64,000 bases of DNA from Eledone cirrhosa. Taxonomy: Eukaryota. Shown one piece after another: positions 880 through 63,606 of this stretch. Where the stretch lies: contig OZ024740.1 in assembly GCA_964016885.1 (NCBI GenBank), forward strand, positions 81,406,001 to 81,470,000, given 5' to 3'. Every line of letters begins with the position of its first letter. Within the stretch, counting starts at the first letter, position 1. The notes beneath the pieces are model-generated. The model worked only from the letters and a program-made list of their open reading frames with translations, was not told the DNA's origin and made no database searches. Both the position numbers and the translations under genes were made by a program.

Positions 880-1207
880 CACGGAATAAATTACCTTTTT
901 ATGATGTCTACCTGTTATTATTCATTCTTTATATATATATATATATATTAGCCGTCGAAATGGCTTGAGCTCAGCCGTCGGGGTCTTACTTGTTCCTATA
1001 GATAGATAGATAGGTAGATAGATAGATAGATAGATAGATAGATAGATAGATAGATAGAAATTTTGAGTATATGTTGTTTGTATACCAACACCCCAGTTTG
1101 CAGGCTGGAGCACTCGACGAAGTGCGCAGGTTGGTTTGGTTACTCCGGAGTAATGTAAAATAAAGTTACATAAAAAGTCAAATGTTTAAAATTTAGCTTC
1201 GTTTATT

Positions 1208-1262
1208 ACTGCTATATATATTTCAGTGACAGCCATCTTTGGCTGTGACCACTTCAGGCAGT
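1208..1262 (-). ncRNA. Type I hammerhead ribozyme (A9 mutated)
   Basis: Minus strand actgc-CTGAAGT-ggtcacagcca aaga tggctgtcact-GAAA-tatata-TA-gcagt. Confidence 0.7.
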
Positions 1263-1610
1263 CCGAATTAGTGTGGTAGAGACAAGTACATATGTTGTTG
1301 AGGTGTATACTTTTGTCAATACTCTGATATGTCCAGTTCCTGGTTAGGTTGTTATTTCTCTGAGGAACTGGAATCATATGAATTCAAACAAACGAATTTC
1401 AGTGTCAAAGGGCCTCTTCTCCTCTCATTGGTCAGTTGTTAGAACATTCCTCATTCTAAGTGTTGTTATTGTTGGAGTTAGCTTAAACAATTGATAAAGT
1501 GGTAGAAGGAACAAGGTGGTAAAGAACAAAATAACAAACAAAAAAAAAGACTATTGACAAAATTATACACCTCAACAACATATGTACTTGTCTATACCAC
1601 ACTAATTCGG

Positions 1611-1665
1611 ACTGCCTGAAGAGGTTGCAGCCAAAGATGGCTGTCACTGAAATATATATAACAGT
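1611..1665 (+). ncRNA. Type I hammerhead ribozyme
   Basis: actgc-CTGAAGA-ggttgcagcca aaga tggctgtcact-GAAA-tatata-TA-acagt; palindromic stem III. Confidence 0.75.
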
Positions 1666-1732
1666 AATAAACGAAGCTAAATTTTAAACGTTTGACTTTT
1701 TATTTTACTTTATTTTTTATATATATATATAT

Positions 1733-3600
1733 TAGTTTTGCGAGGTTTTTTATATGAAATCGTGTGTCGAAACAAATATTGTTATACTTGGGGACGGTCA
1801 TATTTGTGTAATATTGCCAGAATTAATAACAGAACACACTCACTGTTTGGTTGGTTTTCGCTTCTCGCTTCTGTGTCTTTTATATCGGTAATCTAACTTA
1901 CTCGGTCCTCAATGTTGCCATTGACGGACCGACGGTCAAAAATAATACAGATACAATATAGACACAAACACATATATATAGTTTATCATAAATCTTTCGT
2001 TGCACATCTGCAACATCGTCAGTGGTGTTATCGTTTCCTCCTGTTGTATTATATGTCTACGCCATTTTTATTCAGTCTGTCTATATATTTATTTATTTAT
2101 TTGCTTGTTTGTTTATTTTATTTTGTCTTCTTTGCGCATGCGTTTGCGTGTGTGTAGTGTTTTTTTTGCTGTGTGATGGGTGACTAGTGTGTGTTTATGT
2201 GCTTGTTGTTATTGTGTTTGTGTATGTATTTACTTATTTATTTATTTATTTATTTTATTTTATTTACTTATTTATACTTCTCTTAGGTCAGTGTTGTTTG
2301 TTTGGGTGTTGTTGTTATTCCATTCATTCTTTCTGTTTAGTCTTAGCCTTCTAATTTCTATTTTACTGGCCTCTCTGATTTGCCTATCTGCTGGGTCATT
2401 TCTATGTTTAGATATTATTCTAATTTCTATGTTGTCTATGTTACCGTCATGTTGTTTTCTAGCATGTTCGTATAGTACTGACCCGTTTTTTCGTCCTTTT
2501 AGTTCCCCCCAGTGTTGGTCTATCCTTTCACCTATGCTACGAGCTGTCTCACCTATGTATGTTGTTGTCATGTTTCTGCAAGTACTCTCTGTACATCTTA
2601 TGCTATAGACTACGTTTCAAGTTTTACAGTTTATCCAGGGGTTTACCTTACATACGATACACTTCCTATTGGTACAGTGGGTTTTCTGAAAAGTGTAGGT
2701 TTTGCTGATCAGGGATTTTATGGTGGTTCCTGGCTTTTCTACCACCTTAATTTTTAAGTGGGTCTTTCTCAGGGCCTTTCTAAACTGGTTAGCTAATTTC
2801 CCTCCGGGGGTAGCGTCCACAAAGATGACACTCTGGTATCTCTGGTTGTCGTACCATGAGGTGGCTTTCCCTATCTTATGTCTAGCCCTATCTAAGCTAT
2901 TCCATGATTTGCTCCTGTATAATGGGCAAATTCCTTTCATGTCCAGTTCTATGAGTGTCTTATACTTCTCCATGGATCCTTCGTATACTCTAACTCTGTC
3001 TCTTTGGTTGTAGCCAGAGAACTGCACGCGGTTGATGAAGTGTTGGATGTGTCTTTCCATTTCTGTTGGGTCGCACATGCGGGACACATTCTTCATCACT
3101 CGTACGAAATCTGCGATCAGAATATTAAACTTAGCACTACTGGACACTGCTGAGTTTTTGAGTATCAGGTATTTGGAGGCCATGGGTTTAACATAGTTTG
3201 AGTGGAGAATTTGGGCTCTCTCGTCTATAGTGTTAATCCAGAGTTCTGTGTCTAATACAGGTAGTCTATTGTTAGGGTGTTTGGAAGGGGAGTCGATAGT
3301 TACAGTTATACTCTGGTGTATGGAATTAGCTATCTGCTGGATGCTTTCCATCGTGCTACGTTCTAAATCAAACTTGTTAGTGCTTTCTTGTGGGGATGTT
3401 CTTATAACTATATTGATATCGTCTACATAACGAGAGTACATGATGAGGTGTATGGAGCTCTCATTAAGGAGATCTTTAAGTCTCCTTTCCCACCATACCA
3501 TGAAAAGGTTGGCAACATCACCAGCTATGCTGACGCCAATGGCTGCTCCCTCATTTTGGGTGTAGATCTTCTCGTTGAACTTAAATATGTGGCCCTTTAG
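1733..3600 (-). mobile_element. 5'-truncated Penelope-like retroelement (RT + GIY-YIG), possibly Naiad-like, with pLTR
   Basis: ORF 2617-3501 has YSRYVDD, LPVLD, VKPMAS and a Cys cluster; ORF 2272-2571 has YIGETARS...REA; one in-frame stop; HHR in the 3' region. Confidence 0.93.
1984..2027 (-). ncRNA. pLTR hammerhead ribozyme (weak stem I)
   Basis: Minus strand cacca-CTGACGA-t-gttgca gatg tgcaac-GAAA-gatt-TA-tgata. Confidence 0.7.
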
Positions 3601-3602
3601 AG

Positions 3603-62225: not shown

Positions 62226-62756
62226 GATATTTTACGTCTTGCAATTGATGGTAGTGCTGTTCTCTAGATGTTTATGTTTCTATATATAATCATAAAGCTT
62301 TGAAAGCACTCGAACCCAACTGGAAGTCATATTATTTATTCTATTTAATAGATTCTCAATTTATTTCGAAGAAAAAGATGTACACACTGCCTGACATTTA
62401 ACAGAAAACGCCTTATTTATTGCTTTACTGTACGTGACTCCAGTGACCCCGGCAGAGACAATAAGTTGAATGCCGTGGAGCATTTAGTATGTAAGCTTAT
62501 CATATCTACTATCATCATCTCTCAGCACCCTATCTTTCAATTAATATATCAACTAGAAATATCATTTACGCTTTTCACATAAATTTGTCTCAGAATTGCA
62601 CTCATTAGAGATTATGAATAAATGACTTGCCTTACGATCGGTCCTCATTACACAATGATTTGATAATATCTAGAATTATATATATTCATACATATGGCCT
62701 CAGCAGGATGGAAGGAACAGGTAAGATTAAAATAATATGTATATATGTATATATAT

Positions 62757-62790
62757 ACTAGCAGAATGACCCGGCGTTGCTCGGGTTCTA
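62757..62790 (-). mobile_element. Isolated Helitron 3' terminus
   Basis: actagcagaatgacccggcgttgctcggg, like the 56536 end. Confidence 0.65.
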
Positions 62791-62821
62791 AACATAGATT
62801 GGCATATATATATATATATAT

Positions 62822-63430
62822 GGTGGCTGCCAACTCGTTCTCGAGTACGGCCAATACTTTATATCCATGTAGGAGAACTCCTCCCGATGCGGTGAACGAG
62901 TGTGACTTTTTAGTCCAGCCAGCGACTTGAAGACTCTGGTACAAACACTACATTTGTGACAATTATTGACACATTGTGGTGAGCCCATGGCACCATGTGA
63001 CGACAAGTGCAGAGAGATCTTCAGATATAAAGCAATGCCTGTGCTGTGAAGCTTTTATAGTGAGCAAAGGCACTGCACAAAGCCAGTCCCACTCTCTTAA
63101 CCAATATGATATTTACCAAAAAGAAGAACAAGTCAACATCATTGGATACCATCAGGGTTGCAGGTGTTATATCAGAGTTTTCCGTCTCCTAGAATTCTGC
63201 CTTGACAAAGGCTAAAGGGTCATCTCTCCCGGTGATGTTGGATTGCCATTGACTATTAAGAGCTCCTTTGTCTTTTGACAGGTTTTGTTTTTAGTCCTGC
63301 AGGATGTCCAAAGTCACCCTCCTCACCAAGAAACCTTGGTGGCGTTGCCAGTTTAGTCGCCAACCACCCGACCATGAGACAGGTTGTACTGGGATACATG
63401 TTTCCAGTAGCACGAAATGGTGACCTGACA
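62822..63430 (-). mobile_element. RTE LINE-derived remnant with C2H2-like tail
   Basis: Minus strand CSVCTRVFKSLAGLKSHTR, similar to the end of the LINE at 62160-62215. Confidence 0.55.
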
Positions 63431-63478
63431 TAAATATATATATATATATATATATATATATATATATATATATATATA

Positions 63479-63606
63479 GTTTTAATATAGATGAGATTCT
63501 ACAGGACTAGAACTGTTTCATTCTTTAGAAATCATCAGGAGATTCCTGATGATTTCTAAAGAATGAAACAGTTCTAGTCCTGTAGAATCTCATCTATATT
63601 AAAACT
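63479..63606. repeat. Near-perfect 128 bp fold-back of an HHR
   Basis: gttttaatatagatgagattc...atcatcagga-gat-tcctgatgat...gaatctcatctatattaaaac. Confidence 0.92.
63541..63589 (+). ncRNA. Type I hammerhead ribozyme
   Basis: gattc-CTGATGA-t-ttct aa agaa-t-GAAAC-ag ttctagtc ct-GTA-gaatc; degenerate relative at 27645-27705. Confidence 0.88.

Follow-up and report, generated by a model that had tools for sequence, protein, structure and literature searches.

A 64,000-nt stretch of the Eledone cirrhosa genome (assembly GCA_964016885.1, contig OZ024740.1, positions 81,406,001 to 81,470,000 of the forward strand; hereafter the window, in whose own numbering all positions are given) contains sixteen sites at which an earlier sequence-only reading had noticed inverted arms. 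These hairpins are very probably genomic copies of Penelope-like elements (PLEs) that target (TA)n, together with short non-coding RNAs carried by PLEs. The short non-coding members are likely to be fragments of PLE pseudo-long terminal repeats (pLTRs) and retrozyme-like tandem units. As the architecture has been published for PLEs (Craig et al. 2021, PMC8557442; Arkhipova et al. 2013, PMC3846280; these and the other papers cited enter here through parts of their text), these families are new, but their kind and architecture are already known and will not surprise a PLE specialist. Sites are named below by one position each, and families by letters.

Pairwise alignment recovered inverted arms at all 16 sites, with lengths of 20 nt to 1.9 kb and identities of 81–100%. 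A microsatellite-masked blastn search returned 17 local inverted and 10 local direct loci, compared with a mean of 0.03 inverted loci (maximum 1) in 30 local dinucleotide shuffles and a mean of 1.2 (maximum 3) when arms were randomly re-dealt 40 times. A block-shuffle null (means 5.3 and 9.5 vs 17 observed) was discarded because tight hairpins persist inside blocks. None of the six copies of a short interspersed element (SINE), the long interspersed element (LINE) or the Helitron of the window was among the 17 inverted loci. DNA-level comparison, which was confined to this window, sorted the 16 sites into about 12 families. The sites are therefore not all unrelated, contrary to the earlier proposal, since four families have two listed members each: 5135 and 5703 (family B), 8335 and 47610 (C), 38428 and 56082 (D), and 21540 and 29878 (G). 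Arms of one insertion were more alike than other copies of the family (93–95% vs 86–92% in family C; 95–99% vs 79–89% in family G). Protein-coding content was confined to one of the 16 hairpins (22862), and a search with PLE homologues gave no match inside the arms of the other 15. An Rfam scan with E-values returned only microRNA (miRNA)-like hairpins among the best 150 of 189 matches; elements such as these can pass as miniature inverted-repeat transposable elements (MITEs) or, given the sub-threshold miRNA matches, as miRNA hairpins.

Hammerhead ribozymes were sought with a type I descriptor allowing a C3-G8 or U3-A8 core, which was tuned on this window and relaxed twice; p values derive from 40–60 shuffles (floors of 0.024 and 0.016). 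The sequence-only reading had described the insertions as hammerhead/pLTR insertions, which is overstated for the full set. A hammerhead is significant in six of the 16, all with outward orientation (1155, 21540, 22862, 29878, 47610 and 63479; p = 0.016, the floor), and in borderline or partial form for eight more: 52411 (p = 0.024, then 0.098), 38172 (0.024, then 0.34), 8838 (0.082) and 56082 were borderline, 5135, 5703 and 8335 carry the 3′ half only, and 38428 is linked by family alone. At 15350 and 20461 no hammerhead was found with the window descriptor. No site had a significant inward hammerhead, and every readable polarity placed the 3′ end outward, in agreement with the orientation originally suggested; strand skew was uninformative for the loops of 1155, 20461 and 47610. 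The U3-A8 core is a published hammerhead variant (PMC4209133) matched by the core of family G, and the same paper describes hammerhead pairs lying 100–700 bp apart on opposite strands. No Rfam family, hammerheads included, reached its gathering score anywhere in the window; Hammerhead_3 matched weakly at 63530–63574 (E = 0.08) and gave no match at 26525–26600. Folding energies of eight hammerhead candidates were no better than those of shuffles, except for 1606–1672 (z = −2.2).

The two ends of an insertion differ in a regular way. In 15 of 15 insertions with both ends resolved, one arm is flush with a microsatellite and the other continues for 28–126 nt as a tail; this set comprises 13 listed sites plus two further insertions at 46970 and 56420, with 15350, 38172 and 38428 dropped on account of an end that was not resolved. 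If the two start sites were used independently, no more than half of the insertions should carry a single tail; the probability of 15 in 15 is then 0.5^15 = 3e-5, or 1e-3 counted as 10 families. End positions recur at the same nucleotide across independent copies of a family, single-armed ones included (recurring flush and tail ends, respectively: B, 5 and 4; C, 3 and 2; D, 2 and 1; E, 2 and 2; G, 2 and 2, the flush ends of G being approximate inside a TA-like run), and the tail is confirmed by a second copy or an internal unit in six families (B, C, D, E, G and H). The flush end reads TAT or TATA, an element-encoded match of at least 3 nt, in 7 of 10 families vs 0.11 by chance (p = 2e-5).

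Either arm may own the loop. The tail-less arm reaches further 5′ at 8335, 29878, 46970, 56082 and 56420, and the tailed arm is longer at 38428, 47610, 52411 and probably at 20461 and 21540, with ownership undecided for 1155 and 8838. Arms do not overlap at 46970 and 56420; in element coordinates, the tail of 46970 begins where its inverted arm ends. Inner ends fall at or just before the hammerhead core (63479, 38172 and the right arm of 29878), inside stem II (5135, 5703, 46970, 56420 and 8335) or near a putative cut (38428), and both family G flush arms stop at one common position.

The window is AT-rich (35% GC), with dense (TA)n, (CA)n and (GA)n tracts. Defined by alignment, an arm end lay within 15 nt of (TA)5+ at 12 of 16 sites, against an expectation of 2.6% of unmasked positions, or 5.2% for two ends (p = 6e-13); 13 of the 17 blast-defined loci passed as well. 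Insertion mostly into (TA)n, as had been claimed, thus describes the majority of sites. At the exceptions 5135 and 5703 the TA at the arm end is short or imperfect, yet (TA)n is reached through the tails; 38172, a weak member with an inverted arm of only 20 nt, has TA on one side, and 15350 has none, being bordered by a SINE and (CA)n. The membership of 15350 in the fold-back PLE set is doubtful; it has neither a TA flank nor a significant hammerhead. Enrichment over other repeats was also found: such flanks occurred in 4 of 13 controls with partly provisional labels, three of them Helitron-like ends picked out by inspection (Fisher p = 0.027), so that the contrast with the hairpins is real but modest. 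The four were one of the six SINE copies, a tRNA-type SINE and two Helitron-like ends; a PLE at 58640 was dropped from the controls for being a PLE, and a repeat at 22346 for lying between two occupied tracts. Of the ends at 56536, 62758 and 39520–40717, which we take to be Helitron-like, two abut (TA)n directly, so TA flanks are not exclusive to PLEs.

A separate claim, that insertions create or lengthen (TA)n tracts and so contribute to the expansion of TA microsatellites, is not supported and appears unlikely. Occupied tracts (27 of 81, eight of them shared by two elements) are longer than the others (median 36 vs 14 nt, p = 5e-5), and 12 of 19 tracts of at least 40 nt touch an element end, as expansion would predict. 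However, a model in which insertion is proportional to tract length suffices: for 22 insertions over 53 arrays, reconstructed by joining the flanks of each insertion chain, the mean was 79.8 observed vs 76.2 simulated (P = 0.36), and uniform placement fails to reproduce the observed mean. Moreover, TA length did not differ between flush and tail sides (p = 0.90), and some of the longest tracts (98–110 nt) have no recognised element. Target size alone is enough to explain the long tracts; expansion, though not needed, may occur as well.

Coding PLE sequence is present at 2338–3633, 23265–26341, 36.7–38.0 kb, 53.3–53.8 kb and 58.7–60.4 kb. Inside the 22862 palindrome, the frame beginning at 24797 is open over 24797–26152, with an in-frame stop at 26153–26155, and has a mirror copy on the minus strand (24820–23265) with a frameshift near 24215; the open reading frame (ORF) reads outward. 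The two arms of about 1.9 kb differ by 32 substitutions (14 transitions, 18 transversions) and 5 gaps. Pfam matches to RVT_1 and GIY-YIG were weak and under the curated cut-offs. Among 81 homologues, reverse transcriptase (RT) precedes endonuclease (EN) in 31 and EN comes first in none; the only named homologue is a coral protein with 33% identity. The Neptune/Nematis motif, in the definition of PMC8557442, spans residues 389–421 of the frame and occurs in 21 of 38 homologues reaching the EN motif. Judged from its sequence, the element appears to have the Neptune/Nematis layout defined in that paper (C-terminal GIY-YIG, CX4CxxC linker). Membership in Naiad/Chlamys, for which an N-terminal EN and no canonical hammerhead would be expected, was considered and rejected, given the C-terminal EN and the putative hammerheads. 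No direct pLTRs flanking a full-length ORF were found, which is expected because all coding copies in the window are 5′-truncated; partial tandems occur in the non-coding families G and H only. The single-armed PLE at 1733–3633 ends in a tail at (TA)n.

Other coding fragments belong to different PLEs. Segments at 36727–38130 (−) and 53427–53841 (+) are related PLE endonuclease fragments (36% identity) with a GIY-YIG core without paired cysteines, and with a cysteine linker and near-end CxxC/CxH motifs that match the description of the Hydra clade (PMC8557442). The former also has a long N/T/S-rich spacer between thumb and EN, resembling the N-rich inserts of Adineta Penelopes. At 58033–60500 (−), Penelope/Poseidon-like RT and GIY-YIG fragments adjoin a LINE-like RT remnant (about 60510–62200); the 3′ region of this element may end at (TA)7 (58019–58032), a hammerhead candidate lies at 58225, and no inverted arm was seen.

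The sequence-only reading had proposed one integration mechanism, GIY-YIG nicking of TA repeats followed by twin priming or snap-back synthesis. A shared PLE-type route is the simplest reading here too; of its two variants, twin or dual priming is favoured and plain snap-back less so. We therefore prefer, with moderate confidence, priming from both nicks at two fixed RNA sites and head-to-head joining over self-priming. The RT–GIY-YIG protein, probably as a dimer, would nick both strands inside (TA)n, and each nick would prime one complementary DNA (cDNA), one at a distal site (the tail end) and one at a proximal site 28–126 nt upstream. The proximal start would usually lie at the 3–4-nt TAT/TATA match to the target seen at the flush ends. 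Both cDNAs would extend toward the 5′ end of the RNA, each halting on its own; the hammerhead fold or its surroundings would be a frequent stopping place, as is seen for about eight arms. Their ends would then be joined head-to-head via a short palindrome or 0–4 nt of microhomology, with gaps filled. The expected outcome is an inverted repeat whose 3′ ends face outward, with a single one-sided tail and a loop from either arm, and a distal cDNA halting at the proximal site would leave non-overlapping arms, as at 46970 and 56420. We propose that the hairpin is an integration scar and no functional unit.

Several observations weigh against priming from two nicks. The hairpins at 5135, 5703, 22862 and 63479 (possibly also 15350) are symmetric with loops of 0–11 nt, and four family copies are single-armed. 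The tails of 1155, 8838, 20461 and 63479 (4 of 10 families) lack a second copy in the window, the putative 98-nt tail of 1155 included, and may instead be host sequence. The enzyme mobilising the elements is assumed, since most of them are non-coding, and later one-sided deletions in palindromes could mimic loop ownership. The short arm of 29878 matches the nearest unit best (98.8% vs 98.2% and 97.0%), a difference of about one diagnostic site. In the in vitro assay of the anole Poseidon protein PAc (Frangieh et al. 2024, PMC11167929), start-site use showed no difference between strands and no homology to the cut DNA was needed; on the strength of that assay one would expect neither a one-tail rule nor a TA match. 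Some of these points fit snap-back, in which one nick primes a single cDNA; at a natural hairpin (e.g. hammerhead stem II) the 3′ end of this cDNA turns back on itself and is copied back, the endonuclease trimming the second arm to leave a one-sided tail. Snap-back is the published reading of junction palindromes (PMC3846280), and the tail has been read as EN-mediated resolution (PMC8557442). The symmetric hairpins and the 20–40-nt junction palindromes (40 nt at 21213–21252, the 20-nt arm at 38171) resemble its products, hence both routes may operate. The likeness of arms within insertions of families C and G suits it too, but is equally expected from two primings on one RNA or from one source locus. 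For single-unit elements, however, snap-back predicts that synthesis begins with the tailed arm, so that the second arm contains nothing the tailed one lacks. This fails at 8335, where the flush arm holds the 89-nt loop, at 56082, where it holds at least 50 nt, and at 46970 and 56420, unless a one-sided deletion followed. It is also strained at 29878, with 2.7 units on the flush side and 0.7 on the tailed side: there the fold-back must begin from the tail-less arm, yet end at the family tail end, even if the short arm is nearest in sequence to the adjacent unit. Extra sequence on the tail-less arm (five insertions) and non-overlapping arms (two) therefore favour twin or dual priming over plain snap-back, which, trimming step included, we consider unlikely as the general route, and the even split of loop ownership is as predicted for two independently stopping cDNAs.

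The remaining explanations account for fewer of the observations. Short hairpins could be relics of MITEs or fold-back DNA transposons, or the outcome of post-insertion repair or replication slippage, and 15350, 20461 and the unlisted repeats at 22346, 31584 and 6311, which lack a demonstrated in-arm hammerhead or TA flank, are compatible with such an origin. Nevertheless, terminal inverted repeats (TIRs) of MITEs and other TIR DNA transposons should be symmetric and constant within a family, and this candidate was rejected for the set, 15350 aside: arm length and inner junction differ per copy, one end is tailed, and tandem units and hammerheads occur. Together with the absence of SINE, LINE and Helitron copies from the inverted loci, this makes a MITE or repair origin improbable. 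Sharing of occupied tracts and the tracking of tract length by insertions would suit independent same-family insertions side by side in opposite orientation at (TA)n hotspots; but no TA tract separates the arms, random re-dealing gives 1.2 loci and not 17, orientation is always head-to-head, and arms are more alike within insertions (families C and G), so that such coincidence is very improbable indeed. Sequencing or assembly chimeras come to mind for the 3.8-kb loop-less palindrome, which resembles a fold-back read; as substitutions and indels separate the two arms, whose end positions are specific to the family, this explanation has next to no likelihood.

If two nicks are primed as we favour, a stricter rule may apply, which we put forward tentatively as somewhat short of probable: integration of TA-targeting PLEs would normally be coupled and two-ended, one dimer making two cDNAs, one per nicked strand of (TA)n, always with one distal and one proximal start (the latter by 3–4 nt of TA pairing), and joining them head-to-head. 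Such a rule would account at once for the inverted pLTR, for the tail on one side and for the palindrome at the junction, would replace the self-priming model, and would imply that animal retrozymes use the same route. The origin of PLE tandem and inverted structures and of the tail is a named open question in PMC8557442, for which the present set of short insertions gives countable tests (one-tail rule, loop ownership, non-overlapping arms, TA match at the internal start). A coupled model with two start sites was not found stated in the literature searched, of which parts of each source are represented; older papers and the supplementary figures of PMC11167929 may contain it.

Closest among known systems are the EN+ PLEs Neptune and Nematis (PMC8557442), with which the elements share a C-terminal GIY-YIG, a CX2-5CxxC linker, 5′ truncation, partial tandems, an inverted truncated copy, a one-end tail, a putative pLTR hammerhead and microsatellite bias. 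In that paper the inverted 5′-truncated copy lies beside the 5′ end and a 30–40-bp tail is often at one end only; (TA)n bias is reported for Naiad and Hydra, and microsatellite bias for Neptune. Here, by contrast, tails measure 28–126 nt, in most cases more than the published length, and lie on exactly one side in 15 of 15 insertions, and most copies are non-coding hairpins of 100–900 nt. The Penelope of Adineta vaga (PMC3846280) likewise has head-to-head inverted pLTRs, junction palindromes and an optional 31-bp tail on one pLTR, with target-site duplications (TSDs) of 8–10 bp and self-priming as the inferred mechanism; unlike there, targets in the window are (TA)n, the TSD is unreadable and several insertions misfit self-priming. 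Anole PAc cuts and extends both strands of an AT-rich target in vitro, RT begins at two sites bounding the tail, and a dimer is predicted (PMC11167929), which fits priming from both nicks. It belongs to another clade, however, and has no microsatellite target; its start sites do not differ between strands, primer homology is not required, and inverted products are not modelled in that paper as far as represented here.

Families G and H appear, from their sequence features, to resemble metazoan non-LTR retrozymes (Cervera and de la Pena 2020, PMC7229834; Li et al. 2026, bioRxiv 10.64898/2026.07.22.740005) in their non-coding tandem units (316 and 537 nt), low GC and one type I hammerhead per unit. 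The 537-nt unit of family H exceeds the retrozyme norm of about 300 nt. Unlike retrozymes, both arrays terminate within (TA)n, with an inverted arm and a tail of PLE type; the word 'inverted' is not used in the main text of PMC7229834. Such arrays with PLE-type ends support mobilisation of retrozymes by PLEs. Twin or dual priming of L1 (Meyer et al. 2010, PMC2837659) also involves two nicks, two cDNAs and an inverted product, and its classical non-overlapping geometry is that of 46970 and 56420. In contrast to L1, there is no poly(A), the internal start is family-fixed and not variable, arms usually overlap, and the inverted product appears to be the main outcome and not a minority. No further mechanism was found in the parts of PMC12602865, PMC13282606, PMC6431247, PMC9977147 and PMC8969392 that were covered.

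Table 1. Fold-back insertions, single-armed copies and coding frames in the window (HH, hammerhead; fractions after arms, identical over aligned positions; aa, amino acid)
Positions	Strand	Feature (site)	Arms and loop	Ends and flanks	Hammerheads and content
949–999	+	Single-armed family B fragment		Ends at flush position in (TAGA)n
1059–1717		Family A fold-back (1155)	1157–1325/1548–1716 (159/169), loop 222	Right arm flush with (TA)n 1718–1732; left arm extends 98 nt to (TAGA)n	HH cores 1616 (+), 1257 (−), both outward, p 0.016
1733–3633	−	Single-armed family E relative			RT + GIY-YIG, 63% aa identity to 24797 frame
5135–5331		Family B fold-back (5135)	5137–5192/5197–5252 (49/56), loop 4	Tail 5253–5331 reaches (TA)n; TA on the left limited to a run of 7 nt	HH 3′ half (GAAA position, stem III, GUC); arm junction in expected HH stem II
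5703–5897		Family B fold-back (5703)	5705–5758/5767–5820 (51/54), loop 8	Tail 5821–5897 into (TA)n; left TA imperfect	Outward 3′ half HH in both arms
8335–8756		Family C fold-back (8335)	8327–8469/8559–8703 (135/143); 89-nt loop belongs to flush left arm, tailed right arm without it	(TA)n both sides; tail about 8698–8756	HH 3′ half in loop
8783–9062		Singleton fold-back (8838)	8838–8942/8963–9066 (90/103; lengths 105/104 nt), 20-nt loop	Right arm flush with (TA)n 9063–9137; left tail 55 nt	Degenerate outward U3-A8 HH candidate, not significant (p 0.082)
9138–9440	−	Single-armed family E relative		Ends at flush position in (TA)n
15347–15614		Old palindrome (15350)	15347–15474/15486–15601 (94/116)	Between SINE copy and (CA)n
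20331–21505		Singleton fold-back (20461)	20457–20706/21261–21511 (240/250), loop 554	(TA)n both sides; right arm flush, left putative tail 126 nt	No HH found; loop holds 40-nt palindrome 21213–21252 adjoining right arm
21547–22212		Family G fold-back (21540)	21537–21775/21947–22184 (227/238)	(TA)n both sides; flush left arm 239 nt; right side 1.4 units, tail about 28–38 nt	Retrozyme-like tandem unit; U3-A8 HH 21717 (−), outward, p 0.016
22863–26723		Family E palindrome (22862)	22919–24817/24818–26723, 3.8 kb, loop 0; centre 24817/24818 on 6-nt palindrome	Right arm flush; left tail 22863–22918 (56 nt)	5′-truncated PLE; HH 26546 (+), 23107 (−)
24797–26341	+	PLE frame in 22862			RT (from motif 3/4) + thumb + CX4CxxC linker + GIY-YIG endonuclease
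26753–27090	−	Single-armed family C copy		Ends at flush position in (TA)n	HH 27000
29883–30943		Family G fold-back (29878)	30463–30680/30726–30942 (214/217)	(TA)n both sides; flush left arm about 2.7 tandem 316-nt units; short right arm 30726–30943 with tail	Three U3-A8 HH (−) left, three units with HH scoring 11.5; one HH (+) right
38171–38357		Head-to-head junction (38172)	38171–38190/38194–38213 (20/20 nt)	Right partner ends in (TA)n 38358–38424	Left partner: 5′-truncated Hydra-like PLE (−), ORF 36780–37748 and upstream; right partner: HH-core piece (+)
38425–38604		Family D fold-back (38428)	38430–38466/38568–38604 (36/37); tailed right arm longer	Left arm 37–42 nt, flush at (TA)n; right end outside microsatellite	Right arm 5′ end near putative ribozyme cut
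46970–47091		Family B, non-overlapping arms (not in the earlier list)	Inverted HH half 46970–47012 joined to tail alone	(TA)n both sides
47596–48383		Family C fold-back (47610)	47655–47965/48044–48369 (289/311), loop 78	Left arm tailed (59 nt); right arm stops 14 nt short of (TA)n	HH 47902 (−), 48107 (+), p 0.016
52411–53415		Family H fold-back (52411)	53027–53133/53313–53418 (101/106)	Left side of 1.7 tandem units (537 nt each) with 79-nt tail; right arm of 103–106 nt flush	One complete HH core, 52788 (−), outward, borderline
56082–56402		Family D fold-back (56082)	56079–56170/56280–56371 (86/92); flush left arm owns at least 50 nt of 109-nt loop, probably all, tailed right arm without it	(TA)n both sides; tail 31 nt	Degenerate HH candidate 56255 (−)
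56420–56519		Family B, non-overlapping arms (not in the earlier list)	Inverted HH half plus final part of tail (about 56 nt)	(TA)n both sides
63479–63673		Singleton fold-back (63479)	About 62 nt (63479–63606, 97.7%), loop 3	(TA)n both sides; flush left arm; putative tail 61–67 nt	Junction immediately 5′ of HH core (63546 +, 63538 −), p 0.016

The right partner of the 38172 junction (38194–38357) showed no homology to the 3′ region of the long PLE beside it. A 63-nt piece of the SINE family (3604–3666) adjoins the 5′ end of the single-armed PLE (1733–3603) exactly, possibly through a template switch or a later insertion. The Helitron, recognised by a PIF1 match, comprises Rep/PIF1 helicase fragments at 10897–12969, with a 60-nt tandem coding repeat upstream at 9852–10198. 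Local direct duplications were seen at 4231–5134, 55139–55754, 18045–18387, 34062–34623, 45750–46115 and 56785–57093, the first of which extends from a TA tract into the 5135 hairpin.

Additional inverted repeats at 22346–22835 (68 nt, 78%) and 31584–32865 (96–103 nt, 89–96%) are MITE-like, with no evidence of a tail or hammerhead. Another unlisted pair, 6311–6365/6599–6653 (50/55), lies within 5952–6680 with microsatellites on both sides; a strong U3-A8 hammerhead candidate is found at 6294 (−), just beyond its left arm, and the flush/tail pattern is not matched. Short inserts without inverted arms also occur. The one at 47108–47234, between TA tracts, has an intact hammerhead core at 47171 (+) and the same stem II as the piece at 38191, and those at 35059–35129 and 55835–55992 are related to each other, lie between microsatellites and contain weak hammerhead candidates. 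No inverted arms were found within 747–929, 47108–47234, 55835–55992 or 35266–36727. A 39-nt insert between TA tracts (48469–48507) matches, with its own last 31 nt and first 8 nt, the two ends of the 183-nt insert at 747–929 and is possibly a minimal two-ended product. Finally, two to three different elements sharing TA tracts form insertion chains at 8316–9440, 20287–22235, 22850–27155, 55993–56535 and 46952–47258, which represent repeated use of the same TA array within each chain.

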